Origin: Candidatus Heimdallarchaeum aukensis
GTDB lineage: Archaea; Asgardarchaeota; Heimdallarchaeia; Heimdallarchaeales; Heimdallarchaeaceae
Direction of reading: 5' to 3'
NCBI GenBank assembly: GCA_021513695.1
Contig: CP084166.1
Location: 2,720,001-2,784,000 of the forward strand
Length of the DNA: 64,000 nucleotides
Part shown: in pieces, positions 21,557-55,351 of the stretch
Position numbering within the stretch: the stretch's first letter is position 1
Layout: each line of letters begins with the position of its first letter
Translations under genes and position numbers: made by a program
The notes under the pieces: model-generated
Told to the model about the DNA's origin: nothing
The model's database searches: none
Seen by the model: the letters and a program-made list of their open reading frames with translations, nothing else

Positions 21557-23935
21557 TTAAATGTTAAAAGGAATTGAGAATAAATATAGGTAAATTCTAA
21601 CAATATATCTCTTCATTAAATTAATAGTAGGTATTTTTCGCATTATTCTTTTTGCAATAATTCTTGGAAAAAGATAGGTTTCTGTGATATTTAGGCAACG
21701 TATTAGAGACATAGCAATTTGAGTATCTCCTTTAACTTTTATTGCATTAGATGCATAAGCATGATGTATGCCTTTCTGAGCAGTCATTAACTCAAAAGCA
21801 GCGTCTATAGTTCTAAAAGTAATAACTAGATCTGCTTGTTTTTCTGGAATCTTTTGAGGATTTAAGACTCCTTTTTTATTCTTTAAAAGCCCTAAACTAG
21901 TTTCATAGTTATCTACATTAAATAAAATCTTGAAATTTGTTGGCCAAGATCTAATCTCTTGCTTAATATTAGAATCAATAGTTGATAATGTCTTCATTGC
22001 TCTTCCTAAAATTGTAAAAACTAAAGATACTATTCTTTCTTTAATTCTCTTAGGTTTAGGTTGGAATCCTTCTTCTATTCCTAACTTTTTCATGACCTTT
22101 GCTGTTGGGACACCGTTTCTTGAATAACCTCTAATCTTGTAATACTTTTCTTGCATCTCTTCTAAGGGGACAACTTTTTTCTTTTTATCGCTCTCTCTTC
22201 CTTCATTTAGGAATCGTTCAGGAAGAGTATCATCTATTCTTGAGACACCTATCAAGGTGTTCATATATCTTTCTAGAATATGAATTCTTTCACCTGCTTT
22301 GAGAAAATCACGAGAACTTTGTTTTATTCCAGTTACAGTTTCAAATAATTTAGAGTAAATACTTATATCTAATACTTTTTGCGTTATTCTTGGAAAATAG
22401 CTAATAAAGATTTTCAGAAATATTTTTGGCGGATACTTTGCTATTGGTGCTTCTAACATAAAGGCATAAGAAGTAAAAATACATAATTGTAGTGAATTAA
22501 TTGCTGAAAAGAGATTTTCCATGTAATAAACAAACTGTGCTTTAGCTCGCTTCGATTCTCCTTTAAGAAAATTGAAAAATGCTTCTAGGGTGAATAATGA
22601 TGCAGAAAGGTGACACGCTCCTCTATTTGCAACACTGTAGGATAGCCCTTGTCCCCAACATCCTCTTGGATCATATCCTGAAAATTCTAGACCTTTAATA
22701 TTCATTGCAAATCCTTTTCCACCATATTTTTCTGCTAGCCTTTTAGTTCCAAGGGCTAACTCTTCTCCTATTCCTTTTCTGTATGCAATGTCATAAAGTA
22801 TTTCAGAAACTCCTTCTGGAGAACCAAATTTTAGTGGAAAAGAAAAGAGATTTTTCTCATTAGCTTCTATGGCATATGCTAATGTTACAGATATAGAAAT
22901 AGTATCTAATCCTAATCTTGAACAAATTTCATTCCATTCAGCAATTTTTTCAGCATCATATATCTCTAGATTAGAACCAAATAAACTTGTGGTCTCATAT
23001 TCTGGAGCTTGAATTAATTTACCGTTGAACATTCCTTTATGTCCACAGAGGATTGCACAGTTCCTGCAAGAGCTGTATTTCTTATAGAATTCGGACTTTA
23101 ATCTTTCACCATACAGTTCACTAGCTTTTTCGCTCATACCTTTTGTGAAATTGCGAACTGGTAAGATCTTTTTTTCGTTACATATCCTAAAACCAGCGTT
23201 TGTGCCATAATTTCTGTATAAATCTGAAGTATATTCGTTTCTATTAATATACTTAATTGCTTTTCTTTTTATTTTCATGTATTTCTTTTCTTTTTTTGGT
23301 TTTATTCTGAAAGAACCTTTTTCAACAACAATAGCTTTAAGGTTTTTAGCTCCAAAGACAGCTCCTATTCCTCCTCTACCAAAAAATCTGTGTCCAGAAG
23401 CTACATTGGCATAAAGAACCCTATTTTCTCCTGCAGGACCAATAACTAGATTCCCTTTATTTTTTGCTTCTAGTAATTCTTGAGTCTCAAAGATATCTTT
23501 ACCCCAAATTTTAGAAGCACTGTTAAATGAAACACCGTTTTCTGTAATAGATAGATAAGTTGGTTCTTTTGCTTGCCCTTTTATTATTACTCCGTCATAA
23601 CCTACAGATTTCAAGAAAAACGCAAATGACCCTCCACAAGATGAAGAAACTATTAAACCTGTAAGCGGAGATTTAGTAACAGCAGCAAAGCGAGAAGAAT
23701 TGGGTGCACCAGTTCCAACCATTACTCCACCAAAGATGGCAATAATGTTATCTTCACCTAAAGGGTCACAAGACAGATCCATCTTTTTATATAGATAGTA
23801 AATGGCTAATCCCTTTCCTCCGAGATAAAGTTTTCTTTCTTCATTACTTATAGAAACTGTTGTAAAAGCTTTCTTTGTAAGATCAATCTCAAGTAGTTTG
23901 TTGTGAGACCCTAAAATCAACCTAGGACTAGTCAT
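21557..23935 (-). CDS. aor: tungsten-type aldehyde:ferredoxin oxidoreductase with C-terminal SCP2 sterol-carrier-like domain
   Basis: N-terminal LGGKGLAIYYLY...APNSSRFAAVTKSPLTG and the CRNCAILC 4Fe-4S motif. The FETVTG...KAGERIHILERYMNT...DTLPERFLNEG segment also matches the AOR family. Residues ~630-760 (NPQKIPEKQADLVITFRTIDAAFELMTAQKGIHHAYASNAIKVKGD) match the SCP2 fold consensus (ADxTITMxDxDFLALMTGKLNPQxAFxxGKLKIKG). Confidence 0.85.
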   Translation of the reverse strand: MTSPRLILGSHNKLLEIDLTKKAFTTVSISNEERKLYLGGKGLAIYYLYKKMDLSCDPLGEDNIIAIFGGVMVGTGAPNSSRFAAVTKSPLTGLIVSSSCGGSFAFFLKSVGYDGVIIKGQAKEPTYLSITENGVSFNSASKIWGKDIFETQELLEAKNKGNLVIGPAGENRVLYANVASGHRFFGRGGIGAVFGAKNLKAIVVEKGSFRIKPKKEKKYMKIKRKAIKYINRNEYTSDLYRNYGTNAGFRICNEKKILPVRNFTKGMSEKASELYGERLKSEFYKKYSSCRNCAILCGHKGMFNGKLIQAPEYETTSLFGSNLEIYDAEKIAEWNEICSRLGLDTISISVTLAYAIEANEKNLFSFPLKFGSPEGVSEILYDIAYRKGIGEELALGTKRLAEKYGGKGFAMNIKGLEFSGYDPRGCWGQGLSYSVANRGACHLSASLFTLEAFFNFLKGESKRAKAQFVYYMENLFSAINSLQLCIFTSYAFMLEAPIAKYPPKIFLKIFISYFPRITQKVLDISIYSKLFETVTGIKQSSRDFLKAGERIHILERYMNTLIGVSRIDDTLPERFLNEGRESDKKKKVVPLEEMQEKYYKIRGYSRNGVPTAKVMKKLGIEEGFQPKPKRIKERIVSLVFTILGRAMKTLSTIDSNIKQEIRSWPTNFKILFNVDNYETSLGLLKNKKGVLNPQKIPEKQADLVITFRTIDAAFELMTAQKGIHHAYASNAIKVKGDTQIAMSLIRCLNITETYLFPRIIAKRIMRKIPTINLMKRYIVRIYLYLFSIPFNI

Positions 23936-24078: not shown

Positions 24079-27021
24079 TTAGTTAGTTTTAGCGAAAACA
24101 AGACCTTTTTTCTTGAGTAATAGCAGTATTACTGTAATAAGACCAATGCCGCCCACTGCAGCTAGAGGAATAATATACATTAATGGATTAATTTCTTTTT
24201 CTACACTGTAATTTATTTCAAATATTTCAGTTTCTGTAGTTAAAGATGAGTCATCAGTTGCACTTATCTTGAAAATTAAGGTTCCTGATTTTTTGGGTAA
24301 TTCTATGTCAAAGAAGTAACAATCTGTCTCATTGTTGTAAAGCATTGTTTCAACCATCCATTCATCTTCTGTAGCAAATTTGTAAGAAAACAGGACATTT
24401 GTTATATTTCCATCATCGGTCACATTAGCTCTGATTCTTATCGCTTTTTCTTCTAGGACTAAAGGAGAAGAGAATGACGTATCTAACACGATAATTATTG
24501 GAGCTAAAGCTTTTGTAAACTCTATAATGGTAATATTAGATTCTGAAGAAAATCCAGCAAGATCATATGCTCTTACTTTGTATGTCAAGTTCCCTGAAGA
24601 AATAATGACCGGTATCGAAACTGTGTATAAAGATATAGAAGAGTCATATTTCATTGAAAGTATTTTCCAATCGCTTTCTTCATCAAATGTGTAATAAACT
24701 TCTACTGTAAGTAATCCTCCTTTATCTGTGACATTTGCTTGAACTTCAATATCATAACCCCCAGCTAGGTCAAGAGGACTTGTAATAGGAATTAGACTAA
24801 TATTTGGAGCTAATCCATCTGAATAATAACTAAAGGTAGAACTATTAACTGAGTTATCTAATGCGTCAGTTAAGGTAATATAAAATAGAACATCTGTATC
24901 CATATTTGTTCTGGGGATAGTAGAAATAAATTCATAACCTATTGGAATAGTATAATGCTTTAATACAATCTCATAATTTATTACAGAACCAGAATATAAA
25001 TCAGAATAATCTGTAATTTTTAGAGTGAAATTAGCTTCTGTGAAGTCAGATTGAGTTAACCCAAGTTCTAGTAAGTCGATGCTTAAAGTAAAACTTGTTG
25101 GTCTAGTTTCTCTATCAAAAATCAAAAATTCTCTTCCATCATCTAATTCTAACCAGATTCTAATATCTGCAGATTTCTCGTGAGTGATGTCAACGTTTAG
25201 TGTTGCTTCTGATACTCCTCCTCCTCTTTCAACATTTAAAGTTACAAGTGTTGTACTATTGTCTTCAATTAAGGCAGGTAAGTCTACAGCAGTAAAAGTT
25301 TCCATATAATCCATAAAAGAATTGTAGTTTATGACATAGGATATTGTGTTGTTCCACGTTATTCCTCCATCTGTACTATACCAAACAACAGAAGTTTTAA
25401 GGTCTGTGTAGTCGGTCGCATTAAATAACACTTGGACATCGGTAATATTTGAGATTACTGGGGGGTTAACAAGTAGTTTGCCCAAAATAGGTGCTGCACC
25501 ATCAGCATAATAGAAGTTGACTGAAGTGTTCCCCACATTGTCAAAAAAGTCATAAGTTTCAAAGAAGTACTCAACAAACGTTGTTTCGTTTGTTTCAGGT
25601 AGAATAACTGTAAAAGTTGTGGGGGATGTTCCTTCTTCTATTGGCGTTGTATTGACCATCTGTTTTCTTAAGAAAGTTGTTCCGTTAGGCATTGAGTATA
25701 AAATATCAACTCTTTTTGTTCCTGAAGGGTCAACAAATTTTGCAGTAATATTAACTTCTGAACTTGTTAATGTTACATTTTCTATTCCTGGAATAGATAT
25801 TCCGCCATAAATTGAAATTGAATTTACTCTGGGATTCATGTTATCTACTATGGCGGTTTTTAATCCAGATGATCCCTCTCTTCCTTTTTTAGAGTCAACT
25901 ATATCTGAAGCATTTATCATGTATAGAAGATTAGCTTCTACATTAGAAATATCGTCTATTTGAAGTGTTGTACGGTAACTTGCCGCTGTACTACTTAAAT
26001 CTGTCAAATATTCAAAGTTTTGCGATTTATAGTCTTCCTCACCTTCAATCTTATAGTATAAAGTTACACTAGTATCATTAATCGTTTCTACTCCATCATA
26101 ATCCGTAACTGTGACATTAAATACAAAACCAGTGTCTGCATTAATAACTGTTGGTACTTCATGAATGGTAATCTTGGGGGTCCAATCCATAAGAAATGTG
26201 TATGTTTCACTGGTCATTGAATTATTGAATAGATCAAACGAGGTAACATAATATTCAACCCAAGTGGGAGTGTTAGTTGTGACGCTAGGTGGAGTTATAT
26301 CTCCACTAAAATATTCTTCATATATACGCAAGTAATTAAATACTGGGTCATTTACATTAGGATGATCTCCAATATGTGTGATCGCAAATATCTTATATCC
26401 TAATACAGATTCTGTGCTATCATAATCTACAGGAAATGGTGAAACTTCTTCTGTCCCTCCATATGATCCATCAATATATCTTTGTTCCCATGTTTCTGAA
26501 GTAATATTAAAGGCTTCAATTGAGACATAGACAAGATTGTTACGACTTGTTTCCTTATCAATTGAGCAATATATTCTCTTTATTACATCTCCTTCATTAG
26601 CTATGAAAATGTATTCACCATATCTCCATTCTGTTTTATCATTCGTTTTGATTCCAGTGTCAGTTATGTATCCTGTTGATTCAAACTCTGTCTCATCCAC
26701 AACTAGTTGTAAATCTCTACTCATCGAAGCGTTAAACAAAGTATCGTTTAGTGAAATATACTTCCACCACAGAGTAGCATTCCTTATTTCATCTGAATCA
26801 CTTATTGTCAAAGAAACCGTTGCTGTTTCATTGCTATTTGGAGCATCAGGACTAACCTGTGGTGTTCCGAAGAAACTATATTCTGAACTGAATTTTATAG
26901 GTGTTTCTCTGTCTAAAGTTCGGTTTGAAGATAAGTAAATATTCAGCGATACTTCTACACTAGCAGTTATTAAGACAGCTGTAATTAAAATAATTTGGCT
27001 AAATTTCTTTAATTCTTTCAT
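24079..27021 (-). CDS. large cell-surface (S-layer-like) glycoprotein, N-terminal signal peptide and C-terminal TM anchor
   Basis: A signal-like N-terminus FSQIILITAVLITASVEVSL, dozens of N-x-S/T sequons, and a C-terminal LMYIIPLAAVGGIGLITVILLLLKKKG TM plus basic tail. No enzymatic motifs. Confidence 0.6.
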   Translation of the reverse strand: MKELKKFSQIILITAVLITASVEVSLNIYLSSNRTLDRETPIKFSSEYSFFGTPQVSPDAPNSNETATVSLTISDSDEIRNATLWWKYISLNDTLFNASMSRDLQLVVDETEFESTGYITDTGIKTNDKTEWRYGEYIFIANEGDVIKRIYCSIDKETSRNNLVYVSIEAFNITSETWEQRYIDGSYGGTEEVSPFPVDYDSTESVLGYKIFAITHIGDHPNVNDPVFNYLRIYEEYFSGDITPPSVTTNTPTWVEYYVTSFDLFNNSMTSETYTFLMDWTPKITIHEVPTVINADTGFVFNVTVTDYDGVETINDTSVTLYYKIEGEEDYKSQNFEYLTDLSSTAASYRTTLQIDDISNVEANLLYMINASDIVDSKKGREGSSGLKTAIVDNMNPRVNSISIYGGISIPGIENVTLTSSEVNITAKFVDPSGTKRVDILYSMPNGTTFLRKQMVNTTPIEEGTSPTTFTVILPETNETTFVEYFFETYDFFDNVGNTSVNFYYADGAAPILGKLLVNPPVISNITDVQVLFNATDYTDLKTSVVWYSTDGGITWNNTISYVINYNSFMDYMETFTAVDLPALIEDNSTTLVTLNVERGGGVSEATLNVDITHEKSADIRIWLELDDGREFLIFDRETRPTSFTLSIDLLELGLTQSDFTEANFTLKITDYSDLYSGSVINYEIVLKHYTIPIGYEFISTIPRTNMDTDVLFYITLTDALDNSVNSSTFSYYSDGLAPNISLIPITSPLDLAGGYDIEVQANVTDKGGLLTVEVYYTFDEESDWKILSMKYDSSISLYTVSIPVIISSGNLTYKVRAYDLAGFSSESNITIIEFTKALAPIIIVLDTSFSSPLVLEEKAIRIRANVTDDGNITNVLFSYKFATEDEWMVETMLYNNETDCYFFDIELPKKSGTLIFKISATDDSSLTTETEIFEINYSVEKEINPLMYIIPLAAVGGIGLITVILLLLKKKGLVFAKTN

Positions 27022-31222: not shown

Positions 31223-32182
31223 TCATTTTTTCTTAGATTCAAAATTCTTCTTTATTTCATAATAATCTTTATTGTTAAAAGGACAGACCTTTAAACATAT
31301 GCTACATCCGTATTCATTAGTAAAATGTGGCATACATTTTTCCTGTATAATATGAGTTATTCTTCCTGAGCTGTGAATAATTGGTTCATCTAGAATTGCT
31401 TTACCTGGGCAAGAACGAATACATTTTCTACATTTTTTACAATAATCCTCTATCCAAGAGTGCTTATTCTCTTTCGCAAAAGGTAAATTTTCAATATTTG
31501 TATATATTGCTGATATTCTAAATCTAGGACCAAACTCAGGAGAAATCATTAATCCGGAGTAACCGATCCAAGCTAATCCCGCAGCTTGTGCTAAAGGTGG
31601 ATATAGAGAAATCCCTCCTAAAGGGTGTCCTGCATGAGCTGAAAAGCCTAGCTTTCTTAAATATTTAGTTAATTTGTTTGTTAAGATGCCAAGTTTGTTA
31701 TAAGTGTGCATTACTTCTTTAATTGCTTTAAAGCTGGGGGATGTATCCATTTTTTCTTTATTCATTTCCATTCCTAAAACAATAGCATTTTTGTACAAAA
31801 CGCATTTTTCCTTGAAAATGTTTTGTGGTTCTACTTTTGCATAACCAATGAGGTCAATACCTATCTGTTTTGCATAATTTTCAACATCTTTTAATTCTGC
31901 TTTTGTAATTCTTTTCTTAGGATTAGAAGGGTTCTTCTTTAATGTATCAATTGCCTTGTGTAAATTAATTACATTAGAAATTACTATTGGAGATAAACGA
32001 ACTAATCCTCTAAGTCCTTCAGGTCTATATTTAGCACTTTCTTTAGGTATAAAGAATCTTTCAATGGAATCTTCATTGTAACTGACACTAGTTTCATATC
32101 TACAAACATTGTTCTCTTTCTTAAAAAGAGGATTCATAGCTCTATCTAAAAAAAATCCTTGAATTTTACCAATGATTTTCAT
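31223..32182 (-). CDS. QueG-family (epoxyqueuosine-reductase-like) Fe-S protein
   Basis: AAGLAWIGYSGLMISPEFGPRF matches the QueG GLGWIGKN..L(I/L)TPEFGSW signature. Two 4Fe-4S motifs follow: CKKCRKCIRSCP and CSICLKVCPFN. Confidence 0.6.
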   Translation of the reverse strand: MKIIGKIQGFFLDRAMNPLFKKENNVCRYETSVSYNEDSIERFFIPKESAKYRPEGLRGLVRLSPIVISNVINLHKAIDTLKKNPSNPKKRITKAELKDVENYAKQIGIDLIGYAKVEPQNIFKEKCVLYKNAIVLGMEMNKEKMDTSPSFKAIKEVMHTYNKLGILTNKLTKYLRKLGFSAHAGHPLGGISLYPPLAQAAGLAWIGYSGLMISPEFGPRFRISAIYTNIENLPFAKENKHSWIEDYCKKCRKCIRSCPGKAILDEPIIHSSGRITHIIQEKCMPHFTNEYGCSICLKVCPFNNKDYYEIKKNFESKKK

Positions 32183-32375: not shown

Positions 32376-33038
32376 TTAAACTAATGAGGTATTTATTAAA
32401 TAAGTAGAGAAAATAGCATTCATTAATTCATTTCTTTCTCTGATTAACTCAGTGATGATTTCTCCAAATCTTTCGTCTCTTATTTCTTCTCTAACTTCAT
32501 TCAACAGTATTTCGTTAAGTCCTTTGTTTAAACATAAAGTTATTTTATTGCATTTATACAAGATTGCTAGTAATAGTTTGGTGTGCATGGTTGCTTTTTT
32601 CGAATTAATTATAGTCTCTTGTAATTGATGCATTAGTTCAATTTTTACGCGTTCTTCTGTACAGAAAATTTTTCTTCTTTTAAAAAATAGAAACCTTTTT
32701 TCAGATTTAGTTAGTATTCCGCTCTTAATCATAACTTCAATAAAAGATTCAAGTATTTGATTTGATTTTATGCCTAATGATCTTATCCAAAACCTAATAT
32801 CGCTTTCATGTTCATTTTGCATTTCTTCAATAATATTCTTAAAAATAGGTTGTGTAGTTTCTGATGAAATAATCTCTATCTTATTATCATCTCTAATTTT
32901 TATTAAGTTTAACATCTCTAAATCGATAATTATAGATGAAGGTAAACCATAAAAAATAAGGTCACTACTACTTTTTTCTATCCTTCCTCTCCTTTGATCA
33001 ATTAACAAGATTATTAACTTCTCTGTTAGTAATAACAT
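32376..33038 (-). CDS. GPP34 (GOLPH3/Vps74-like) family protein
   Basis: The N-terminal LLLTEKLIILLIDQRRGRI...YGLPSSIIIDLEMLNLIKIRDD follows the GPP34 pattern (LxEELLLLALDDxxGK...LAGAxLAELxLxGRI). The FWIRSLG...SGILTKSEKRFLFFKRRKI and LLLAILYKCNKI blocks are also in family order. Confidence 0.45.
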   Translation of the reverse strand: MLLLTEKLIILLIDQRRGRIEKSSSDLIFYGLPSSIIIDLEMLNLIKIRDDNKIEIISSETTQPIFKNIIEEMQNEHESDIRFWIRSLGIKSNQILESFIEVMIKSGILTKSEKRFLFFKRRKIFCTEERVKIELMHQLQETIINSKKATMHTKLLLAILYKCNKITLCLNKGLNEILLNEVREEIRDERFGEIITELIRERNELMNAIFSTYLINTSLV

Positions 33039-33730
33039 TCAAATTAAAATTAACTATTTCACCCTAATATATTTTGCTTTCTAGTAAATAAAATAATCGT
33101 AAAATTCAAGATTCATTAAAGCATCAACTAGATTTTTGTACGCTAATCTTGCTTATGAAGTAAAGGAGAGAAGTCCTGTACTACCCATCATTTTTTTTAT
33201 AGTTAGATTGCCAGTCCAGTTCTTGTTTTTGGCTAGTTTTATACGATTTCTAACTTGAACTATTTTGATGTATTCTAGAAAAAAAAGGAAAAAGGTAATT
33301 ATACTTTTGAACTATCTTTTGAGTAATAGTAAATATGAAATGAAACCAACAGCAATTGTTCCAATTACCAGGGCAACAATTCTTGTAGTCATGAAGAATA
33401 GAGCAGTAGCAAGAATTTTCCTATATGTTGTCTTAAGGTTACCTTATTGTATGGGGCACAATCTAATAACATAGTATGTTCTTAACTTTTTTACTAAGTT
33501 TTAGTCCTTTTATAGAAATATGTATTTTTAGCCATTAAAATCAGATCTCTAAATTAAAGCCTATTTTATACAACAATAATACTAAATAATCTAATTGTTT
33601 GCTATTTTTTGTTAAGCCATACAAAAAACCAATCTGTTGTTACAAGGATAGACGCTGTGATTCTTTAGAAGGAGAATATTTTTTTCTATTAAAATGGCTA
33701 AACTTTTTATGAACTGGAAGCTTAGTCAAG

Positions 33731-35464: not shown

Positions 35465-35625
35465 ATATTTAGTTTCAATATCTTCAATTTGAAAGATTTT
35501 TTCTATTTTTTCTTTTTATATACTCTTTTTTTGATATTTTTTGAATTATTTGTAAAATCTGCCTATCTCTTCACTGTAACCTTTTAGAGATATTGTTAAC
35601 CCTTCATATCGGAATATTTAAATTT

Positions 35626-36603
35626 ATGAATGTATTTTTTCCCCCCATGTCGGATAAAACTCTATTTAAAAAACAATTATTGTTTAAGTATTTACCTGTA
35701 ACAATTTTACTTATTGTTATTGGTATAATCGAACTTCTTTCTATTCTTTTAAATTTTAACCGCCCACAAGATGCTCCTGAGCTGACATGGTTTTTAATTA
35801 TTATTTTGTTAATCGTAGGTATTACAGCAGGTTTTCTAGGCGGTATTATTGGTACTGGTGGTTGCAGTGTTATGCTTCCAATATTACACTTTTGGTTGGG
35901 TTTCCCTGCTCCACTTGCAGTTGGTACAACATTATTTGCTGTTATTTTTACTGCCATATCTGGTGGGTATGGACACTTAATCCGAAAAAATGTAGATAAA
36001 AGAGCATCCATTATCTTAGGATTATCGGGTATTGCTGGTGTCGCTCTTGGTTCTTGGTTATTTACTATGCTGACTGGAGAAAACACAGTAAGATATTTGA
36101 GTTTGATTCTTGGTATTGTTTTTATATGGCCCGCAATTAGGATGACTTGGGAAGGAATAAGGGGCAAGATAATAGATAAAAAAGGTTCTACGGAAATAAA
36201 AACAGAGACTAAAGAGCAGGTAATTAAAGGATCAGTTAAATGGTTAAGTGTATTTGGTTTTATTATTGGAATAACTACTGGCTTAATTGGTCTTGGAGGT
36301 GGTTATGCTCTTGTTCCTGGACTTATATATCTGTTTGGAGCACCTGTTTATATAACAATGGGTACTTCTTTGGCTATTATGATACCTTTAGCTTTAACTG
36401 GTGGGTTGATTAAATTATTCCAAGGATATGTTGTTCTTGACGCCGCTCTGCTTCTTGCAGCAGGAACAATTATTGGTGCTCAAATAGGTTCTGCTGTGAT
36501 TAAAAAATTCAGACCTTATTACTTGAAGCTCATATTTGGTCTGTATTTTGTTTACGTTTCATTAAAGTTCATATTCTGCTTTTTTGGTTTGAGAATATGG
36601 TAA
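35626..36603 (+). CDS. TauE/SafE (DUF81) family sulfite/sulfo-compound exporter
   Basis: Two 4-TM halves, each with G-rich motifs (GFLGGIIGTGGCSVMLPIL and LIGLGGGYALVPGLIYLF). The track start is TTG 35593; candidate ATG starts are 35626 or 35647. Confidence 0.7.
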   Translation: MNVFFPPMSDKTLFKKQLLFKYLPVTILLIVIGIIELLSILLNFNRPQDAPELTWFLIIILLIVGITAGFLGGIIGTGGCSVMLPILHFWLGFPAPLAVGTTLFAVIFTAISGGYGHLIRKNVDKRASIILGLSGIAGVALGSWLFTMLTGENTVRYLSLILGIVFIWPAIRMTWEGIRGKIIDKKGSTEIKTETKEQVIKGSVKWLSVFGFIIGITTGLIGLGGGYALVPGLIYLFGAPVYITMGTSLAIMIPLALTGGLIKLFQGYVVLDAALLLAAGTIIGAQIGSAVIKKFRPYYLKLIFGLYFVYVSLKFIFCFFGLRIW

Positions 36604-36855
36604 AAATTAATCAAAATTTAAATATTCTTTTTTTTCTTTTCATTAATAATAATTAAAATGATTAACAGTGTATTTTTGAGTTGAAAAATTACTAAATATC
36701 TGATTATTTAACGTTTTTAACGATTATACATTTTTAGGTACGCTGCAGGTTCTTTTTCTCATTATCAATTAGAATCTCAAAATTTTTTTGTAATTATTAA
36801 GTTGATGAAATAGTTTAATAGAAAAAGGATTCGAATATACTATAAAAATTGATTT

Positions 36856-37977
36856 TCACATTTTCTTTTGGCCATCTATTAACATAAGTACACTTTGTTC
36901 TTTGGGTTTTTCATAGCCCCATTTGTTAATAAATTGCTTCCAACGAGAGTAGATCTTTAATTTATCTGCTTCTGATATTCGATATGAACCTGGTTTGTAA
37001 TCTTTTGTTTTTTCTAAATATTTGTCAAACATGGGTTTAGCATCGTTAAATCCTGGTAAAGATAAATCTTGATAAATTCCTTCTAATACTTTAATCGGAT
37101 TCTTTACAAATTCTTCGTATCTAATTTCAACATAGTTCTCTTTAGGTATTAAATCTAAATCTTGGTAAAACTTGTTGTACATCTGCTCAAAGTTTGATAG
37201 AACGAACTCATCTAGGTCTTCTTCTCTTTCTTGTAATTGAAGCAAACTAATAAGTTTCTTGTGCATTCTTTTTGTTGAAAAGAAAACTTTGTATGGATCT
37301 CTAATTATATGGATAAATTTAGCTTTAGGAAAAAGTTCTGTTAGCAAATCTACCCTTGCAGTATCAATTGGACTTTTCATTACTAGTGTTTTATCTTGCT
37401 TCTTAATTTCTAGTTTTTTGATCAAATAAAGAATACTTCTTTTTAGTTTTCTTTTCTCTTTTTTTGAGACATTCTTGAAAGTTACATACCTGTTGTAATA
37501 GTCTTGATTAGTTGGAAAATAAGCTCCGGTATAAGGAGACATTGTACAAAGATTAGCTATCGCGAAATCATGTTCACTTGGAGAATCAGCTTTAATTTTC
37601 ATATTATCTTGCGGTCTTTTTTCAGGTAAAAATAAAGATAAAAGCCAATTAAAGAAACGAGAAAAACCTAGAAAATAATAGGGAAAGACACTTTCAGTTA
37701 AAGTTATGAATTCGTGTTGGGGGTCACTTACTAATAATTCGTGCAAAAATGTAGTCCCTGTTCTCCAATGACCTAGTATAAAAATTGGTTGTTTCTTTAT
37801 TTTATGCTTAGATATTTTGCGATCAAAAAGAATCTTTTCTATGAGTATTAAAGGACTAAAAATAAATGTAAGAAAAGTTATAATTATTGCTCTTAAGCTG
37901 TATTTCCATGAGATTTTAAATCTATTTTCAAAAAGCAATTTCATCCATTTAGCAAAACTAGTTCCAACTACAAACAT
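36856..37977 (-). CDS. membrane-anchored sulfotransferase (PAPS-dependent family), paralogue 1
   Basis: 5'-PSB P-loop ILGHWRTGTTFLHELL and the 3'-PB region IHIIRDPYKVFFS. An N-terminal hydrophobic segment (AIIITFLTFIFSPLILIEKILF) precedes the catalytic domain. Confidence 0.75.
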   Translation of the reverse strand: MFVVGTSFAKWMKLLFENRFKISWKYSLRAIIITFLTFIFSPLILIEKILFDRKISKHKIKKQPIFILGHWRTGTTFLHELLVSDPQHEFITLTESVFPYYFLGFSRFFNWLLSLFLPEKRPQDNMKIKADSPSEHDFAIANLCTMSPYTGAYFPTNQDYYNRYVTFKNVSKKEKRKLKRSILYLIKKLEIKKQDKTLVMKSPIDTARVDLLTELFPKAKFIHIIRDPYKVFFSTKRMHKKLISLLQLQEREEDLDEFVLSNFEQMYNKFYQDLDLIPKENYVEIRYEEFVKNPIKVLEGIYQDLSLPGFNDAKPMFDKYLEKTKDYKPGSYRISEADKLKIYSRWKQFINKWGYEKPKEQSVLMLIDGQKKM

Positions 37978-38163
37978 TTTCTCTCTTCCAGCTCTTTCTT
38001 CTAATTAAACAATGGTGTGAAAATACATGATACTTTGTGTGAAACGAAGATTGTGTTTATAAAGCTCTGAGTGAAACAATGATATTTACATGAAAATAAT
38101 AAATTCTGGTAAGAATCATTCAATAATTAAAATGACCTTTAGGCTTTTACCATTTCTTTCTTT

Positions 38164-39039
38164 CTAATCTCTAAGTGAAAATTTGCAGTTAGTGTCTCCT
38201 TTTGCTCTACATTCTGTCTCGCTTACATTTATTTTAGGGTTGTTTAATGCACCCTCAATGAAACCTGTAAAAAAGTCGCACATTGGTTCATCTGATGAGT
38301 AACCTCTACATATTGGGCAGAGTTTCATTACAAATTGATTGTTTTTTTCATCGAAGTCTACTACTGAAATTTCGGATAGCAAATTATAAACATCTTTAGG
38401 GCTAATTACAAGTTTCTTTGAGTAATTTTTTTTAGCTAGCTTATAGCCAAAATATTTTCCAATAGATTCTAGCACATTTTTCTTTATATTTTCATCGTAC
38501 TTAGAATATAGTTCTCTTGCTAACTTTACTGTTCGTTCAGGATAATCATCTAGTAAACCCTTCTCCAGTTCTACTGATTCGAGTAATATAGTTAATGGTA
38601 AATTAGGATCAAAGATATTAAAAAATTCAGGGTTGGTTTGATAAAGATGATATAATTGGTCGTATAATTTTTGAGCCTTTACACCAAAAGTCTCAAAAAT
38701 AGATTTTTCAATATAAGTAATATCTTGGGTTTCAAAGAAATATGAAAAATCTTTCAAAAATTCAATTTCTATTTGCTTAACAAGAAATTGCCCCAACTTT
38801 ACATCTTCTTTTTCAAAGGCATGAACAACAAAAATCAATCCATGCTTTGATGAATAAATGAGGGTTCCATCTTCTGTTTGAATAGCGTAAAGGTTTGAAT
38901 GACCTAATTCTTTTAAGAATAGATCGATTGCACTAGAAACGCCAGCAAAAAGAATTTCATCAATATCTTGTTTTTTGTCAATTGAGAATTTGAATACTGG
39001 TAACCCTGTTAAATGAAAGATGTAAACAGCTTTAATCAT
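38164..39039 (-). CDS. longin-like N-terminal domain plus C-terminal V4R domain protein (TRAPP Bet3/Trs-like)
   Basis: The C-terminal CPICRGY...CDFFTGFIEGALNN...ETECRAKGDTNCKFSL matches the V4R consensus (C..C...G..xG....ETxCxAxGxxxCxF). The N-terminal ~120 aa (MIKAVYIFHLTGLPVFKFS...) have a roadblock/longin-like pattern. Confidence 0.5.
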   Translation of the reverse strand: MIKAVYIFHLTGLPVFKFSIDKKQDIDEILFAGVSSAIDLFLKELGHSNLYAIQTEDGTLIYSSKHGLIFVVHAFEKEDVKLGQFLVKQIEIEFLKDFSYFFETQDITYIEKSIFETFGVKAQKLYDQLYHLYQTNPEFFNIFDPNLPLTILLESVELEKGLLDDYPERTVKLARELYSKYDENIKKNVLESIGKYFGYKLAKKNYSKKLVISPKDVYNLLSEISVVDFDEKNNQFVMKLCPICRGYSSDEPMCDFFTGFIEGALNNPKINVSETECRAKGDTNCKFSLRD

Positions 39040-40110: not shown

Positions 40111-40194
40111 ACAAAATAAGAATAATTGTGAATAGAATGATGAAAACGGAAAGAAATTCTGACTTCTTCTATAATTTATTTTTTGGTGATAACA

Positions 40195-40728
40195 ATGGTT
40201 AATGTTTATGCAATTGACTATATCATTATGGCTGTGCTTATTATAATAAGCGCAATAATGGCTCTAGAAGCAAGAGAAATAGTCTATGCAATTTTTTTCT
40301 TTGACCTGTTTACAATAGGCATTGGAGGAATGTTTCTTTTATTCAACGCTGGTTATGTGGCAATGTTTCAGTTGGCAGTCTATGCTGGTGCTGTGGCAGT
40401 AACAGTGTTGTTTGCAGTAATGCTTACAAGACGAACTGCGACAGGAAAAGAAATTATCTCTTTTGCATCAATACGAAATAAAATTGCAAGTCTTGTTTTA
40501 GCTCTCAGCATTGCAGCATTAATGCTTATTCTAGTTTCGAGATATGATTGGGCTACTCCTGCTGGTGATTATCCTGATCCATTAGGTGGTGGAGCGATAT
40601 TTACAAGTATAGTTACGAACTATGTTGTACCTTTTCTAGGAATTAGTCTAATTCTTGCTGCTTCTTTGGTAGGAAGCGTTGCATTGCTAAGAGAAGAGAG
40701 AAGTAAAAAGGAGGTTGCCAGTAAATGA
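40195..40728 (+). CDS. nuoJ: complex I subunit J (ND6-like)
   Basis: YAGAVAVTVLFAVMLT and the NuoJ TM pattern. The track start at 40183 is TTG; the likely start is ATG 40195, 5 nt after GGTGA. Confidence 0.8.
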   Translation: MVNVYAIDYIIMAVLIIISAIMALEAREIVYAIFFFDLFTIGIGGMFLLFNAGYVAMFQLAVYAGAVAVTVLFAVMLTRRTATGKEIISFASIRNKIASLVLALSIAALMLILVSRYDWATPAGDYPDPLGGGAIFTSIVTNYVVPFLGISLILAASLVGSVALLREERSKKEVASK

Positions 40729-41087
40729 CAGCAGTTCCAACAGAGTGGACAGTTTATTTGTCAGTAGTAATTTTGTCGATAGGTCTCTATGGTATTTTTA
40801 CTAGACGAAGTATGATACGCATTCTCCTTGGAGTAGAATTAATTTTAGGTGCAGCGACGCTGAATTTTATTGTATTTTCAATGTCTGTGCTAAATGGAGA
40901 TGTAGTAGGTCACATTCTGACCTTATTCGTTATAGCTCTAGCTGCAGCTGAAACAATTATCGGGTTAATCTTGCTTATTATGCTTTACAAAGATGTTGGC
41001 TCTATTGACATTTCTTTAGCAAGTGATGTAAAAGCGGAAGAGCAAGATGAAAATAAATTAACAAGAGGTGAAAAAGAAGATGGGTAA
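40725..41087 (+). CDS. nuoK: complex I subunit K (ND4L-like)
   Basis: LSIGLYGIFTRRSMIRILLGVELILGAATLNF is typical of NuoK. Its ATGA start overlaps the nuoJ stop. Confidence 0.85.
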   Translation: MTAVPTEWTVYLSVVILSIGLYGIFTRRSMIRILLGVELILGAATLNFIVFSMSVLNGDVVGHILTLFVIALAAAETIIGLILLIMLYKDVGSIDISLASDVKAEEQDENKLTRGEKEDG

Positions 41088-41580
41088 ATTTGCAGATTTT
41101 TTTAAGAAATGGGCTCGTAGTTCCTCTATTTGGCCCGTCAGATATTGTGTAGCCTGCTGTTCTACAGAAATGGCGGCAGCAATGGCTTCAAGATTTGATA
41201 TGGAACGTTATGGTGTGATGCCAGTTTGGGGACCTCGTCAAGCTGATTTTCTCATGATTGGTGGAATTGTTACTAAAAAAGCAGCAACAAGAATAAAAAC
41301 AATTTATGAGCAAATGCCTGAACCGAAGTATGTACTAGCTTTAGGTGCTTGTACAAGTGGTGGAGGACCTTATTATGATAGTTACAATGCAGTTCAAGAT
41401 GTAAGTGAGATTGTTCCTATTGATGTATATGTTCCTGGTTGCCCTCCTAGACCAGAAGCAATCCTAAGAGGAATTGAGATGATACAAGAAATGATTAAGA
41501 AAGGAATTAGAGCTGATGCTCCTCTACAAGTCGATGAAAAGACCAAATTGAAGGAGGTTCTAAAGTCATATGAACGTTGA
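41080..41580 (+). CDS. nuoB: complex I subunit B (PSST, N2 cluster)
   Basis: The CCSTEM, GACTSGGGPY and VPGCPP cysteine motifs. The track start at 41068 is GTG; the likely start is ATG 41080 after GAGGTGA. Confidence 0.9.
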   Translation: MGKFADFFKKWARSSSIWPVRYCVACCSTEMAAAMASRFDMERYGVMPVWGPRQADFLMIGGIVTKKAATRIKTIYEQMPEPKYVLALGACTSGGGPYYDSYNAVQDVSEIVPIDVYVPGCPPRPEAILRGIEMIQEMIKKGIRADAPLQVDEKTKLKEVLKSYER

Positions 41581-42040
41581 AGAGTTAAAAAAGAAGTTTC
41601 TAGACAATATAAAAACGGCTCAAGAAGAGAAAATTCAAGATAATCAGATTTTTATTAAAATCGACAAAGAGGATATCAAAACTGTTTCTAAATTTATCAA
41701 GGAGCAATTTGATGACGTAAATAAAATACTAGAGCAAGTTTTTGCTATAGATTTTCCTGATAGAAATGAAATGGAAATGATTTACACCTGGTGGTTTATC
41801 GAATATCATGCCTTAGTTCATTTTCGTGTAATCTTACCATATGATGATCTGAAAGTTGTATCTATTCAAGATGATTGGGTCGCTGCTAATTGGCATGAGC
41901 GAGAAACTTGGGAAATGTTTGGGATAGATTTTGAAGGACATCCAAACTTAAAGCAATTTTTGCTCTCAGACGAACTTTTCGGTAAACATCCTATGAGGAA
42001 ATCTTTCAAAATTGAGCATAATCCGGAGGAAGCAAAATGA
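41570..42040 (+). CDS. nuoC: complex I subunit C (30 kDa)
   Basis: NuoC-like length and conserved WHERETWEMFGIDFEGHPNL block. AGGAGGT upstream. Confidence 0.8.
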   Translation: MNVEELKKKFLDNIKTAQEEKIQDNQIFIKIDKEDIKTVSKFIKEQFDDVNKILEQVFAIDFPDRNEMEMIYTWWFIEYHALVHFRVILPYDDLKVVSIQDDWVAANWHERETWEMFGIDFEGHPNLKQFLLSDELFGKHPMRKSFKIEHNPEEAK

Positions 42041-43152
42041 CAGAAAATAAAGAAAGAAGTTCAAGTTTAGTTTCTTTTAGCTATGGTCCTCAACATCCTG
42101 GAACACATCCTTATTCCTTACTTTTAACTGTTGATGGAGATCGAATAGAAAAAGTAGAAGCACAGATTGGTTATGTTCATAGAGGATTAGCTAAACAAGC
42201 TGAATCAAGAACATTTATCCAAGCTTTACCAATAATGGAAAGATCTTGTTTCATTGATTCAGTTAACCATCAATTTGGTTATGTCATGGCAGTGGAAAAA
42301 TTAGCCGGTATAGAAGTACCAGAAAGAGCAGAATACCTTAGAGTTATTGCTGCTGAATTATCACGCATGAACTCTTTGATAAGCTGGTTTGGTGGTTACG
42401 CAGCTGAAACTGGAATTAACTCAGCTTTCATGTGGGCTTGGAAAGATAGAGAAATGTTTCTTGACCTATTTGGCCATCTTGCAGGAAGCAGAGTTTCTGT
42501 AATGTACTTAACTATCGGAGGAGTTAGGTGGGATTGGAATGATAAGCTAACCAATTTAACTTGGGAAATTATTGATTATATGGAAGAGAGACTAAAAATA
42601 CACAAAAAGCTGGTTATGAAGAATTCAATATTCAAAAAACGAACTAAAGGTGTAGGAGTCGTTTCAAAAGAGAAAGCACTAGAATATGCATTTACAGGGC
42701 CTAACTTAAGAGCTTCAGGAGTACAAGGCGATATTAGAATTTTAGAACCCTATAGTGTTTATGATCATTTCAAATTTACTCCTAAAGTAATGACTGAGGG
42801 AGATAACTGGGCTAGAACCATGATTCGTCTACACGATATTGAAACTAGTATGGAGATTCTAAAACAAGCTCTTCCAGAGATTCCCGAAGGAGAATACAAG
42901 ACTAAAGTTCCTCTAAAATTAAGAGCTAATGCTGGCGAGGCATATGCAAGAGTAGAGTTGTCTAGAGGAGTCATGGGTTATTATATTAGAACAGTGGAGG
43001 ACAAATCAACAAAACCCTATAGAGTTAAAATAAGAGGACCTTCATTCTCACACTTCCAAATTGTAGAAGATATTCTAGTTGGAACACATATGGCTGATAT
43101 TCCAATAATCAAAGGTTCTCTAGATGTATGTCCAGCAGATTTAGATAGATAA
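42037..43152 (+). CDS. nuoD: complex I subunit D (49 kDa), no NiFe-binding cysteines
   Basis: SFSYGPQHPGTHPYSLLLTVDGDRI and the RGxEK-like core. The N- and C-termini lack the RxCGxC and DPCxxC motifs of hydrogenase large subunits. Confidence 0.85.
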   Translation: MTENKERSSSLVSFSYGPQHPGTHPYSLLLTVDGDRIEKVEAQIGYVHRGLAKQAESRTFIQALPIMERSCFIDSVNHQFGYVMAVEKLAGIEVPERAEYLRVIAAELSRMNSLISWFGGYAAETGINSAFMWAWKDREMFLDLFGHLAGSRVSVMYLTIGGVRWDWNDKLTNLTWEIIDYMEERLKIHKKLVMKNSIFKKRTKGVGVVSKEKALEYAFTGPNLRASGVQGDIRILEPYSVYDHFKFTPKVMTEGDNWARTMIRLHDIETSMEILKQALPEIPEGEYKTKVPLKLRANAGEAYARVELSRGVMGYYIRTVEDKSTKPYRVKIRGPSFSHFQIVEDILVGTHMADIPIIKGSLDVCPADLDR

Positions 43153-43165
43153 GAAGGTGAAAGTA

Positions 43166-44140
43166 ATGAATACAGATTTTCTATTTATAAAAGTCGCAGT
43201 ATTTCCTGGTGTCCTTTTCGTACTATTTGGATGTCTTTATTTGATGTATTTCGAAAGGAAAACAATAGCGAGAATTCATGGAAGAATAGGGCCACAATAT
43301 GTAGGCTATGGAGGTTTGTTACAAACAATAGCTGATCTAATGAAATTAATGTTTAAGGAATGGATATTCCCAAAAACAGCAAAGAAAGCAGCTCTATTTC
43401 TAACCCCTATTGCTCTATTTCTACTTGCTTTTCTACCCCTATCGGTTGTTCCATGGGGAGAAAATTGGTATGTAGCAGATTTCAGTGTTACATTGATCTT
43501 TGCATTTGTGGTTATAGCTGCTATTCCTTTCTTAAGCCTTCTACTTGGTTGGTCCTCAGGAAGTAAATATTCTTTGATAGGCGGATACAGAGCTGCATCA
43601 CAACAAATTGTGTTTGAGGTTCCTTTATTTCTTTCTGCATTAACTCCTGCTATACTTGCAAATAGTTTGAGTTTAATGGATATTACAAAAAATCAGAAAA
43701 TATGGTTCCTTGTACTGAATCCAATCGCTGCTTTCGTCTTTTTCGTTTCTATGCTTGCAATGATGGAAAGACAACCTTTTGATATTCCTGAAGCAGAATC
43801 CGAATTAGTATTTGGTTGGAAAACAGAGTTAAGTGGTATTTTCTTTGGTTGGTCAATATTCGCTGGTTACACTATTATGATCGGAGGAAGTGCTCTATTT
43901 GTTGTTTTATTCATGGGTGGTTTTAACGGGCCAGGAAATAATTTAGGTGTCCTATGGTTTATGCTCAAACTAGCTTTGATATGGCTTATTCTTTTCGCTA
44001 TGAGAGCAGTTTTACCAAGATATAGAATGGATCAGATACTAAGAATGTCTTGGAGGTTGATGATACCACTTTCTTTGGTCAGTATTGGCTTATCAATCGG
44101 GTTACTATTTGCATTCCCCAATTTCTTCAGAGGTGTATAA
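43166..44140 (+). CDS. nuoH: complex I subunit H (ND1-like)
   Basis: The ERKTIARIHGRIGPQYVGYGGLLQTIADLMKL region and eight TM helices. The track start at 43157 is GTG; the likely start is ATG 43166 after AAGGTGA. Confidence 0.85.
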   Translation: MNTDFLFIKVAVFPGVLFVLFGCLYLMYFERKTIARIHGRIGPQYVGYGGLLQTIADLMKLMFKEWIFPKTAKKAALFLTPIALFLLAFLPLSVVPWGENWYVADFSVTLIFAFVVIAAIPFLSLLLGWSSGSKYSLIGGYRAASQQIVFEVPLFLSALTPAILANSLSLMDITKNQKIWFLVLNPIAAFVFFVSMLAMMERQPFDIPEAESELVFGWKTELSGIFFGWSIFAGYTIMIGGSALFVVLFMGGFNGPGNNLGVLWFMLKLALIWLILFAMRAVLPRYRMDQILRMSWRLMIPLSLVSIGLSIGLLFAFPNFFRGV

Positions 44141-44183
44141 TTTGGCAGATAAAAACTTTCTAACTAACATAAGATCGTTATAC

Positions 44184-44627
44184 ATGGCTATTGCACAGAT
44201 GTTCAAGAAACCATTCACAACAAAGTATCACACAACAAACAAAGAAAGAATAGTGGAATACGACAGATTGCGTGGAGAACTTATAATGAACTTACCCAAA
44301 TGTGTGGGTTGTACACTATGTGTTCAAGCTTGTCCTAATGCTGCATTGAAAATGGTTTCATATGACAATGGAAATCCAAGAAACAAAAAGAAACATGTTC
44401 CTTCTTTTAATTTAGGACTCTGCAGTTTTTGCGCTTTATGTGTAGAAGCTTGTCCTTATGATGTCCTAGAAATGGGTAAAGTGTACGATAGAGCCTATGC
44501 CACTATGGAAGATATGCTTCGTTCTCCTGAGGAGATGTATGAGGATTGGATTGAACAGAAAGGAGAAGAAGATGAAATAGATCCTGAAGAAATTGAAACT
44601 GACAAAATCGATATCGAGGAGGATTAA
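44184..44627 (+). CDS. nuoI: complex I subunit I (2x[4Fe-4S] ferredoxin-type)
   Basis: CVGCTLCVQACP and CSFCALCVEACP. The track start at 44085 overlaps nuoH; ATG 44184 avoids the overlap. An acidic C-terminal tail. Confidence 0.8.
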   Translation: MAIAQMFKKPFTTKYHTTNKERIVEYDRLRGELIMNLPKCVGCTLCVQACPNAALKMVSYDNGNPRNKKKHVPSFNLGLCSFCALCVEACPYDVLEMGKVYDRAYATMEDMLRSPEEMYEDWIEQKGEEDEIDPEEIETDKIDIEED

Positions 44628-44628
44628 A

Positions 44629-46086
44629 ATGGTTGTTAGTACAGTTTTGTTATTAATTTCTATAATAGCTCCTTTAGTTATAGGATTCTTATTATTCATT
44701 CCATTCCTTCAAAAATATGCAGGGTGGATAACAGCTGGAGTATCTACTGTCGTTTTAGCCTTCTTAATTACTGCTTCTGTTCCAATATGGAACAGTTCTG
44801 TAACAAAAGTGGAACTCCAATGGGCTCCAGCAGCTGGTCTGTTAATGGGATTCTTGTTGGACAATCTATCAGCACTTATTGCATTATTGATAGCAGTTGT
44901 TTCTACCTTAACAGCTTTCTATTCCATAAAATATATGGAGCATGAAGAGAGAAAAGGATTATACTTTAGCTTATACAACTTCTTCTTTGCAGGTATGCTC
45001 GGAGTAGTTCTATCTACAAACCTCCTAGAGTTTTTCTTCTTCTGGGAACTTATGCTAATTCCTAGTTACTTAATGATTGTTTATTGGGGTACTAAAGCTA
45101 AAGCAGCAAAAGTTGCATTGAAGTATTTCTTCTATACTCAAGTGGGTTCTATTGGAATAATTGTTAGTTTTGCAATTATTGCCTTTTATGGTAACAGTTT
45201 AAACATTGCAGAAATTGCAACTAATCTCTCAATATCTTCACTTCCAAATGCTATACTCTACTTAACCTTTATACTACTGATGATAGGTTTAGCTGTAAAA
45301 CTCGCTATCTTTCCTTTCCAAAATTGGTTACCTGATGCTCACGGAGAAGCTCCAACACCAATAAGTGTATTGCTCTCTGCAGTTATGATCGAAACAGCAG
45401 CTTATGCAATAGTTCGTATTGCTATGCAATTTTATGGAGAGATTTTCGAAACATCTAGGATTGTCTTTGAGAGTGTAGGAGTATTTACCCTCTTGTATGG
45501 AGGCTTCTTAGCTTTAAGGCAAACAGATGTTAAAAGACTACTCGCTTATTCTTCTGTAAGCCAAATGGGTTATGTCTTTATTGGTTTATCAACATACAAC
45601 CAATTTGGTGTTTCAGGAGGATTATTCCACATATTAGCTCATGGATTTGGAAAAGGGATACTCTTCATGACTGCAGGAATTCTCATACATGAAGTGAAAA
45701 CTAGAGATATTACTGCAATGGGTGGATTAGGTAGAAAAATGCCTTTCACTGCTATAATTTCATTTATTGCAGCATTAAATCTCGCTGGAACACCCCCACT
45801 AAGTGGATTCTTCAGTGAATGGTTTATCTTTAGTGGCGCATTCTATCAAGCAACAACAGAGTTTGTAATTCTAGGTATTTTTCTATTACTAGGTTCAATA
45901 TTAAGCGCAGCTTATATGCTACGTTTTCTGTGGAAAGTGTTCCTTGGTCCTTTACCAGGAGAACTAGAAAAGACAAAAGAAACAAAGCTATTACTTTGGG
46001 TTCCAGGAGCGATTTTAGCACTATTGGCTATATTCTTCGGTATCTTTGCTAATGTTGCAATTGAACTTTTCAGTACAGTGATTTGA
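44629..46086 (+). CDS. additional antiporter-like subunit, NuoM/ND4-like (or MrpD-like)
   Basis: WLPDAHGEAPTPISVLLSAVMIETAAYAIVRI is a NuoM-type motif. The ATG at 44629 directly follows the nuoI stop, and GAGGAGGA lies upstream. Confidence 0.75.
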   Translation: MVVSTVLLLISIIAPLVIGFLLFIPFLQKYAGWITAGVSTVVLAFLITASVPIWNSSVTKVELQWAPAAGLLMGFLLDNLSALIALLIAVVSTLTAFYSIKYMEHEERKGLYFSLYNFFFAGMLGVVLSTNLLEFFFFWELMLIPSYLMIVYWGTKAKAAKVALKYFFYTQVGSIGIIVSFAIIAFYGNSLNIAEIATNLSISSLPNAILYLTFILLMIGLAVKLAIFPFQNWLPDAHGEAPTPISVLLSAVMIETAAYAIVRIAMQFYGEIFETSRIVFESVGVFTLLYGGFLALRQTDVKRLLAYSSVSQMGYVFIGLSTYNQFGVSGGLFHILAHGFGKGILFMTAGILIHEVKTRDITAMGGLGRKMPFTAIISFIAALNLAGTPPLSGFFSEWFIFSGAFYQATTEFVILGIFLLLGSILSAAYMLRFLWKVFLGPLPGELEKTKETKLLLWVPGAILALLAIFFGIFANVAIELFSTVI

Positions 46087-46095
46087 GGTGAAAAA

Positions 46096-48126: not shown

Positions 48127-48135
48127 GGTGAAAAA

Positions 48136-49605: not shown

Positions 49606-49610
49606 AAAAA

Positions 49611-51041: not shown

Positions 51042-51054
51042 AGGTGAAAAAAAG

Positions 51055-55199: not shown

Positions 55200-55351
55200 A
55201 AAATCACTCTCGTCCTCTAGATCCTCAAAGAAAAGCACTTGGTTATAAAATTAATTCTAAAACGAAAAAGAAAAGAAACATTTTACTGTTTTACCCCAGC
55301 TTAACTCATATTTAAGGTGCTGCTTTTTTCTTAAAAAAATGAGCTGAAAAT

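Follow-up and report, generated by a model that had tools for sequence, protein, structure and literature searches.

Introduction

The described systems that come closest to the gene treated here, a GPP34/GOLPH3/Vps74-family gene of Candidatus Heimdallarchaeum aukensis lying in a stretch of 64,000 nucleotides (contig CP084166.1, positions 2,720,001 to 2,784,000 of the forward strand; hereafter the window), are the eukaryotic proteins GOLPH3 of humans (PDB 3KN1, 9QPQ) and Vps74 of yeast (PDB 2ZIH/2ZII). GOLPH3 binds phosphatidylinositol 4-phosphate (PI4P) at a site made up of R90, R171 and R174 plus W81, for which the Vps74 equivalents are R97, K178, R181 and W88 (Wood et al. 2009, PMC2806290). 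With the paired substitutions W81A/R90A and R171A/R174A (W88A/R97A and K178A/R181A in Vps74), binding to PI4P, targeting to the Golgi and the function of Vps74 are all lost (PMC2806290). The GOLPH3 hairpin serves in bilayer insertion and in dimerisation (PMC2806290, 10.1101/2025.06.26.661719), and both proteins carry an N-terminal tail of 50-60 residues that binds coatomer (COPI).

In prokaryotes, the widespread short single-domain form has been defined as GPP34_S, and within Archaea the family has been found in Asgardarchaeota only (Ferreira et al. 2025, PMC11706023). In the tree of that paper the archaeal sequences are non-monophyletic, from which exchange of the gene between archaea and bacteria was suggested. 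The circular Asgard genomes that concern us here were reported by Wu et al. (2022), in a paper whose main text is silent on GPP34, GOLPH3, Vps74 and Golgi (PMC8813620). Beyond Ferreira et al., we found no paper in the searchable literature that links GPP34, GOLPH3 or Vps74 with Asgard archaea.

In this study, we compare the Heimdallarchaeum protein with these systems in its fold, lipid pocket, hairpin, relatives and genomic setting. The comparison leads us to place it, as a divergent and probably functional member, in the short single-domain branch of prokaryotic GPP34; it is probably a cytosolic and hairpin-using peripheral adaptor that would be neither a PI4P nor a COPI effector. Its PI4P pocket appears wholly lacking and, among the prokaryotic short forms examined, seems intact in none, whereas the hairpin is conserved; these are the useful additions to a family assignment that already existed.

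Identity, fold and selection

32376..33038, minus strand: complete coding sequence of a short, single-domain GPP34/GOLPH3/Vps74-family protein (220 residues plus stop; from the open reading frame list)
32529..33029, minus strand: PF05719 match (residues 4-170; positions 1-167 of 201 of the profile)

The encoded protein is identical (100%) to the entry 'GPP34 family phosphoprotein [Candidatus Heimdallarchaeum aukensis]' (P0001), whose contig is 3.08 Mb long. Its orthologues in Ca. H. endolithica and in one Heimdallarchaeaceae metagenome-assembled genome (MAG) are 94-95% identical to it, that of the MAG being named 'GOLPH3/VPS74 family protein'. The GPP34/GOLPH3/VPS74 assignment of this exact protein is therefore already known, from NCBI and UniRef names as well as from the published distribution. 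The PF05719 profile matches at 67.5 bits against a gathering cut-off of 29.1 (E=2.1e-18), in agreement with the precomputed annotation, and confirms the family membership that an earlier note had proposed from the letters of this DNA. It is the sole Pfam domain in the 220 residues, with no fused domain, and no paralogue of the protein occurs in the 64-kb window.

In the predicted model, a helical core and a projecting beta3/beta4 hairpin can be superimposed on 3KN1 and 2ZIH, although identity to the GOLPH3 and Vps74 structures is only 13-20%. The GPP34 fold expected by the earlier note, as opposed to an unrelated helical bundle, is thus borne out at the level of predicted structure. The gene is also under purifying selection: among the three Heimdallarchaeum orthologues, the ratio of nonsynonymous to synonymous substitution rates (dN/dS) is 0.09-0.17 at dS values of 0.15-0.29, close to the ratio of 0.06-0.07 in the adjacent coiled-coil gene, and pseudogene status or decay was rejected on this ground.

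The PI4P pocket

Pocket columns were taken from the family alignment, and the placement was repeated with hmmalign on 272 sequences, 267 of them prokaryotic homologues (P0004-P0270). GOLPH3 residues 60-296 and Vps74 residues 67-231 were rebuilt from HMMER alignments, a step checked by the numbering, which reproduces the pocket residues.

32967..32969, minus strand: Ser24 at the alignment position of GOLPH3 Trp81, which stacks on the inositol ring; not conserved
32940..32942, minus strand: Pro33 at the alignment position of GOLPH3 Arg90, a phosphate ligand; not conserved
32751..32762, minus strand: Asn93 to Leu96 at GOLPH3 Arg171 to Arg174, the N-terminus of helix alpha6; both basic residues lost

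Conservation of the PI4P-binding residues, which the earlier note had put forward as a check, is not observed: W81/R90/R171/R174 correspond to S24/P33/N93/L96. The loop G18-Y30 contains no tryptophan at all. In GOLPH3, the ten residues 162-171 (NPLKLHYQLR), which end in R171 and precede helix alpha6, form an insertion in the HMMER profile alignment that is absent here and from all prokaryotic short forms in the alignment; a further insert of about ten residues, present after the first hairpin in GOLPH3 and Vps74, is likewise missing from the Heimdallarchaeum protein. With all four ligands replaced in the alignment, the PI4P pocket appears to have been lost from this protein.

The wider family gives a similar picture. 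At the R90 column, arginine or lysine occurs in none of the 267 prokaryotic homologues and alanine in 206, and alanine is also the commonest prokaryotic residue at the W81 column. Of 270 relatives, 67 keep a basic residue at each of the R171 and R174 columns; the Heimdallarchaeum protein has lost both. As aligned, no prokaryotic short form examined would keep the pocket intact, and the prokaryotic consensus of Ala/Ala at the W81 and R90 columns is the state of the PI4P-dead mutant W81A/R90A. At the level of residues there is therefore no support for the proposed binding of host PI4P by bacterial GPP34 (Ferreira et al. 2025, PMC11706023). With GPP34_S as described (PMC11706023), the Heimdallarchaeum protein shares a single domain of about 220 residues, the want of an N-terminal tail, a stand-alone gene, the same deletions relative to eukaryotes and the lack of W81 and R90 equivalents; it differs in being very divergent and in having lost the basic residues of R171 and R174.

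The start of the gene bears on the second eukaryotic function, coupling to coatomer.

33039..33041, minus strand: in-frame TGA directly 5' of the ATG, read from the sequence

The orthologues begin with the same MLLLTE, and residue 2 aligns to GOLPH3 L60. Because the in-frame TGA adjoins the ATG and residue 2 corresponds to L60, an N-terminal COPI-binding tail cannot be encoded. The pocket and the tail together bear on the reading to which the earlier note points, namely that this is a true functional counterpart of GOLPH3/Vps74 that binds a phosphoinositide, whether on an internal membrane or on the plasma membrane, and retains or sorts membrane-anchored glycan-modifying enzymes, such as the sulfotransferases nearby. 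That reading can point to the same fold and to a conserved hydrophobic hairpin, but it is confronted with four replaced pocket residues and a missing R171 insert, where the corresponding mutations to alanine destroy both the binding of PI4P and the function in vivo, and with an absent coat-binding tail in a host that has no Golgi. Nor are COPI and phosphatidylinositol 4-kinase known in archaea. We consider this reading barely credible, and the genomic evidence on it is given below.

The hairpin and the proposed mode of action

32661..32714, minus strand: projecting beta3/beta4 hairpin (residues 109-126; strands 109-116 and 119-126 in the model)
32670-32699, minus strand: hairpin tip K114-R-F-L-F-F-K-R-R-K123, equivalent in the alignment to GOLPH3 192-QNFLLFDMTT

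The hydrophobic tip is kept: F116-L-F-F119 aligns to 194-FLLF of GOLPH3, whose tip is 194-FLLFD-198. Where GOLPH3 flanks this tip with Q-N and D-M-T-T, the Heimdallarchaeum protein has six basic residues, K114-R115 on one side and K120-R-R-K123 on the other, and the hairpin net charge of +6 equals the family maximum against a median of +2. GOLPH3 also has an electronegative surface that faces the membrane and holds acidic clusters (10.1101/2025.06.26.661719), to which its client enzymes bind by short basic tails. The whole Heimdallarchaeum protein has a net charge of +1 and an isoelectric point of 7.7, compared with -1 and 6.6 for the GOLPH3 core, these being bulk values only. Fold and hydrophobic hairpin are conserved across all three domains of life, and this conservation makes membrane docking or dimerisation through the hairpin a candidate for the ancestral activity.

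The protein would be cytosolic and would act through the hydrophobic tip F116-L-F-F119, which is the sole functional element that the family has conserved. The hairpin could insert into the cytoplasmic membrane, with the flanking lysines and arginines holding the anionic face electrostatically; it might also, or instead, mediate dimers of the kind that GOLPH3 forms in solution. Once bound to the membrane, the protein would serve as a peripheral adaptor for partners, acting neither as a PI4P effector nor as a COPI adaptor. Most bacterial GPP34 members possess a hydrophobic C-terminal tail rich in Ala, Val, Ser and Thr, which may be a tail anchor or a membrane-associating helix; a C-terminal 19-residue Kyte-Doolittle window exceeds 1.6 in 46 of 79 bacterial members, whereas the Heimdallarchaeum protein lacks such a tail and reaches 0.44.

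Several points weigh against the hairpin-docked adaptor. Membrane docking is a property that we infer from sequence, and a different basic pocket might be built from other residues, such as R82, R86 and K91, which are close by in the sequence. In addition, positions that are near-invariant in the prokaryotic subfamily, by the consensus of our own alignment as distinct from a curated definition (G31-L-A-G-A35, Y124-P125, E132, R136), are altered here: GLAGA to GLPSS, Y124-P125 to I-F, E132K and R136M. A lineage-specific function may therefore apply, although L2, L4, E6, L8, G18, Y30, G31, L32, L40, W84, L117, F119, L156 and C163 of the consensus are kept. Finally, the sole prokaryotic GPP34 genetics concerns the GOLPH3-like SCO4440 of Streptomyces coelicolor and implicates it in peptidoglycan cross-linking, a process that archaea lack (PMC12402492). 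SCO4440 is likewise a short, cytosolic, single-domain protein, the two having been compared by description only; archaea are without peptidoglycan, and no such neighbour is present at the Heimdallarchaeum locus.

The hairpin allows for one further explanation, in which the protein is a soluble regulator or scaffold unrelated to membranes, its winged-helix-like units binding protein, ligand or even nucleic acid and the hairpin being used for oligomerisation only. The dimerisation reported for GOLPH3 is compatible with such a role, and the conserved hydrophobic tip with its basic flanks is what the adaptor reading would put to use at a membrane. We judge the soluble role unlikely, though deserving of serious mention.

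Relatives and evolutionary placement

When 1.84 billion cluster representatives were searched exhaustively with phmmer, 338 matched at E<=1e-3, but only 17 at E<=1e-10. The best non-self match, P0004, shares 29% identity (89.5 bits); no representative lies between 50% and 29%, and identity outside the genus is at most 29%. Nearly all of the 150 matches listed are 200-250 residues long and are thus short forms, as opposed to the eukaryotic type of roughly 300 residues. The median homologue length is 222 residues, and the Heimdallarchaeum protein, at 220 residues and with one domain, falls within the short form (about 215-230 residues, single domain). The named relatives are bacterial, namely Virgibacillus, Salimicrobium, Filobacillus, Alkalibacillus, Pullulanibacillus, Aminicenantes, Holophagae, Dehalococcoidia and Formimonas. 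When GTDB species genomes were scanned with a three-sequence alignment, the nearest relative was an 'uncultured archaeon' MAG (P0006, 27%); Kapabacteria, Marinifilum, Ignavibacteria, Verrucomicrobia and others came next. No further members emerged with a profile that represented the archaeal subclade by the window protein, P0004 and P0006.

Residues 32-162 also give two weak matches, one to phrog_5367 (E=7e-4), a phage protein family of unknown function, and one to NF047687 (E=8e-4), the LIC10173 family of Leptospira; each is probably a further distant GPP34-like family. A defence or phage origin of the gene was considered and rejected: PADLOC reported nothing, the PHROG match is weak, and the flanking repeats are AT-rich chance matches only.

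A rough neighbour-joining tree (Kimura distances, 221 columns, bootstrap), which holds only two eukaryotic sequences, one of them partial, and whose deep nodes are unsupported, joins the Heimdallarchaeum clade to P0004 with 95% support and to P0006 with 18%, and places the two eukaryotic sequences elsewhere without support. The protein is an isolated, long-branched lineage within the prokaryotic short-form family, and a specific kinship to eukaryotic GOLPH3 is neither supported nor firmly excluded.

These data bear on whether the protein could represent a vertically inherited archaeal ancestor of eukaryotic GOLPH3, that is, a eukaryotic signature protein in a state that preceded both the recognition of PI4P and the coupling to COPI. 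No known archaea are closer to eukaryotes than Heimdallarchaeia (PMC8813620), archaeal GPP34 has been found in Asgard lineages only (PMC11706023), and fold and hairpin are common to both proteins. However, the distribution is very patchy, with nothing between 50% and 29% identity and only two singletons grouping with the protein; scores are 42-90 bits to prokaryotic short forms against 16.5 bits to GOLPH3; the eukaryotic sequences do not join it in the rough tree, albeit without support; the family is widespread in bacteria; and the published tree, with its non-monophyletic archaea, suggests archaea-bacteria transfers (PMC11706023). Such an ancestry therefore seems improbable. A further reading is, in our view, highly improbable: the protein would preserve a pre-eukaryotic state of GOLPH3, a hairpin-docked peripheral adaptor that works with Asgard small GTPases or with HEAT/adaptin-like proteins to sort or cluster membrane proteins. 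The eukaryotic stem would only later have gained the insert plus W/R/R/R, for recognising phosphoinositides, and the N-terminal tail, for coupling to COPI. If true, it would make GPP34 an overlooked eukaryotic signature protein of the membrane-trafficking set. Because this protein is of the short form that is also common in bacteria, and appears to lack the lipid pocket as well as the coat-binding tail, the presence of GPP34 in an Asgard archaeon is no argument for Golgi-like sorting or enzyme retention, nor for phosphoinositide signalling.

Genomic neighbourhood

No operon partner is conserved for GPP34, which stands alone as a gene. On the same strand, 193 nt downstream, a 319-residue RDH/QueG-like protein with a double 4Fe-4S motif is encoded (window 31223-32182, minus strand). 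It is followed by a 254-residue coiled-coil protein, whose C-terminus gives a weak, sub-threshold TrmB-like match, by a 255-residue protein without a Pfam match, and by two oligopeptide-type ABC (ATP-binding cassette) ATPases. This order is kept within the genus, where the Fe-S protein of Ca. H. endolithica has 287-304 residues. Three Heimdallarchaeaceae contigs, by comparison, retain only a 112-residue ferredoxin-like remnant of it (L004 9334-9672, L005 4163-4501, L006 1726-2064), which suggests truncation or pseudogenisation in that lineage. An operon with, or functional dependence on, the Fe-S gene was rejected since GPP34 is intact where the Fe-S gene is truncated.

The upstream side is variable, with an alpha/beta hydrolase, TauE and a sulfotransferase here and large Big_7 proteins in Ca. 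H. endolithica. At the nearest loci outside the genus the neighbours are unrelated: a HEPN/nucleotidyltransferase pair with a HEAT-repeat protein, PAS histidine kinases, and an acetyltransferase. In a Pfam scan of 71 neighbour proteins from 14 independent loci, no neighbour family recurred beyond closely related genomes.

Two sulfotransferases are encoded in the window on the minus strand, at 36856-37977 and 54063-55238 (PF13469, E=1e-33 and 3e-31). In each, a single N-terminal hydrophobic segment is followed by a strongly basic stretch and then by a GHxRTGTT motif that binds 3'-phosphoadenosine 5'-phosphosulfate (PAPS). Given the positive-inside rule and the cytosolic donor PAPS, the catalytic domain should be cytoplasmic. 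This topology would be opposite to that of the type II enzymes of the Golgi, which GOLPH3 recognises by their short, basic tails in the cytosol. The first sulfotransferase lies 3.8 kb upstream of GPP34 and is found again in two related Heimdallarchaeaceae contigs. Neither the same side of the gene in Ca. H. endolithica nor any of the more distant GPP34 loci examined has it, and a conserved linkage was rejected on these grounds.

For the supposed GOLPH3/Vps74 counterpart, a sulfotransferase with an N-terminal hydrophobic segment near the gene, here and in the two related contigs, is what one would hope to find, as are a sequon-rich surface protein and an Arf-family GTPase in the window. Set against these are the linkage lost in Ca. 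H. endolithica and missing at all distant loci, and the predicted cytoplasmic catalytic domain. The earlier note had also drawn a glycan-modification and sorting theme from the window. Its sequon-decorated surface protein is indeed there, as a 980-residue protein at 24079-27021, but the theme is without support: the sulfotransferase linkage is not conserved, the catalytic topology is predicted to be cytoplasmic, and nothing ties the gene to the surface protein.

Several further observations concern these neighbours. The cluster at 35593-39039 comprises a TauE/SafE-family membrane protein (plus strand), a Sulfotransfer_3 protein (minus strand) and a V4R-domain protein (minus strand), the second Sulfotransfer_3 protein lying 15 kb further on, and the pair of sulfotransferase and V4R protein recurs upstream of GPP34 in contig L004. 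The 980-residue protein (minus strand) has an N-terminal signal or anchor and dozens of N-x-S/T sequons, and at its C-terminus a transmembrane helix with the short basic tail KKKGLVFAKTN. Pfam gives no match for it, and it is probably a glycosylated type I surface protein. A 326-residue protein encoded at 10864-11844 (minus strand) combines an Arf-family small GTPase domain at residues 11-172 (PF00025, E=7e-19) with an extension of some 150 residues at its C-terminus. Among the eukaryotic signature proteins of Asgard archaea, small GTPases are typical; at a distance of 21 kb, no link between this gene and GPP34 is implied. A 670-residue HEAT-repeat protein is encoded at 17452-19464 (plus strand; HEAT_2, E=7e-114), and in the 'uncultured archaeon' contig L008 a 294-residue HEAT_2 protein (2409-3293, plus strand) lies 120 nt downstream of P0006 on the same strand. 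HEAT neighbours account for 2 of the 71 scanned neighbour proteins and may be coincidence.

Other features of the window

33065..33075, minus strand: TATA-like AT-rich element AAAATATATTA, about 30 nt 5' of the ATG, by sequence reading only

The element AAAATATATTA is a possible archaeal promoter of the gene's own, with a leader that would be short or absent; it is weak evidence, because intergenic DNA of 27% GC yields such strings by chance. It belongs to a 690-bp region 5' of GPP34 (33039-33730) that has no convincing open reading frame and lies in the part of the window with the lowest GC content (about 27%). This region varies among relatives, in which small open reading frames of 48-103 residues are called there. 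Rfam gave no structured RNA in the window, 33039-33730 included.

Elsewhere, a long same-strand cluster at 40183-51432 (plus strand) encodes a subunit resembling 49-kDa/NuoD of complex I, along with three antiporter subunits of the Mrp/NuoL-M-N type, and probably specifies a respiratory or hydrogenase-like complex bound to the membrane; its GC content of 0.36 and GC skew of +0.2 are higher than elsewhere in the window. Two unusual fusions are encoded on the minus strand: a 792-residue aldehyde:ferredoxin oxidoreductase at 21557-23935, whose C-terminal extension has a weak, sub-threshold SCP2-like match, and a 992-residue protein at 59087-62065 that joins a response-regulator receiver to a PPDK_N (phosphoenolpyruvate/pyruvate-binding) domain.
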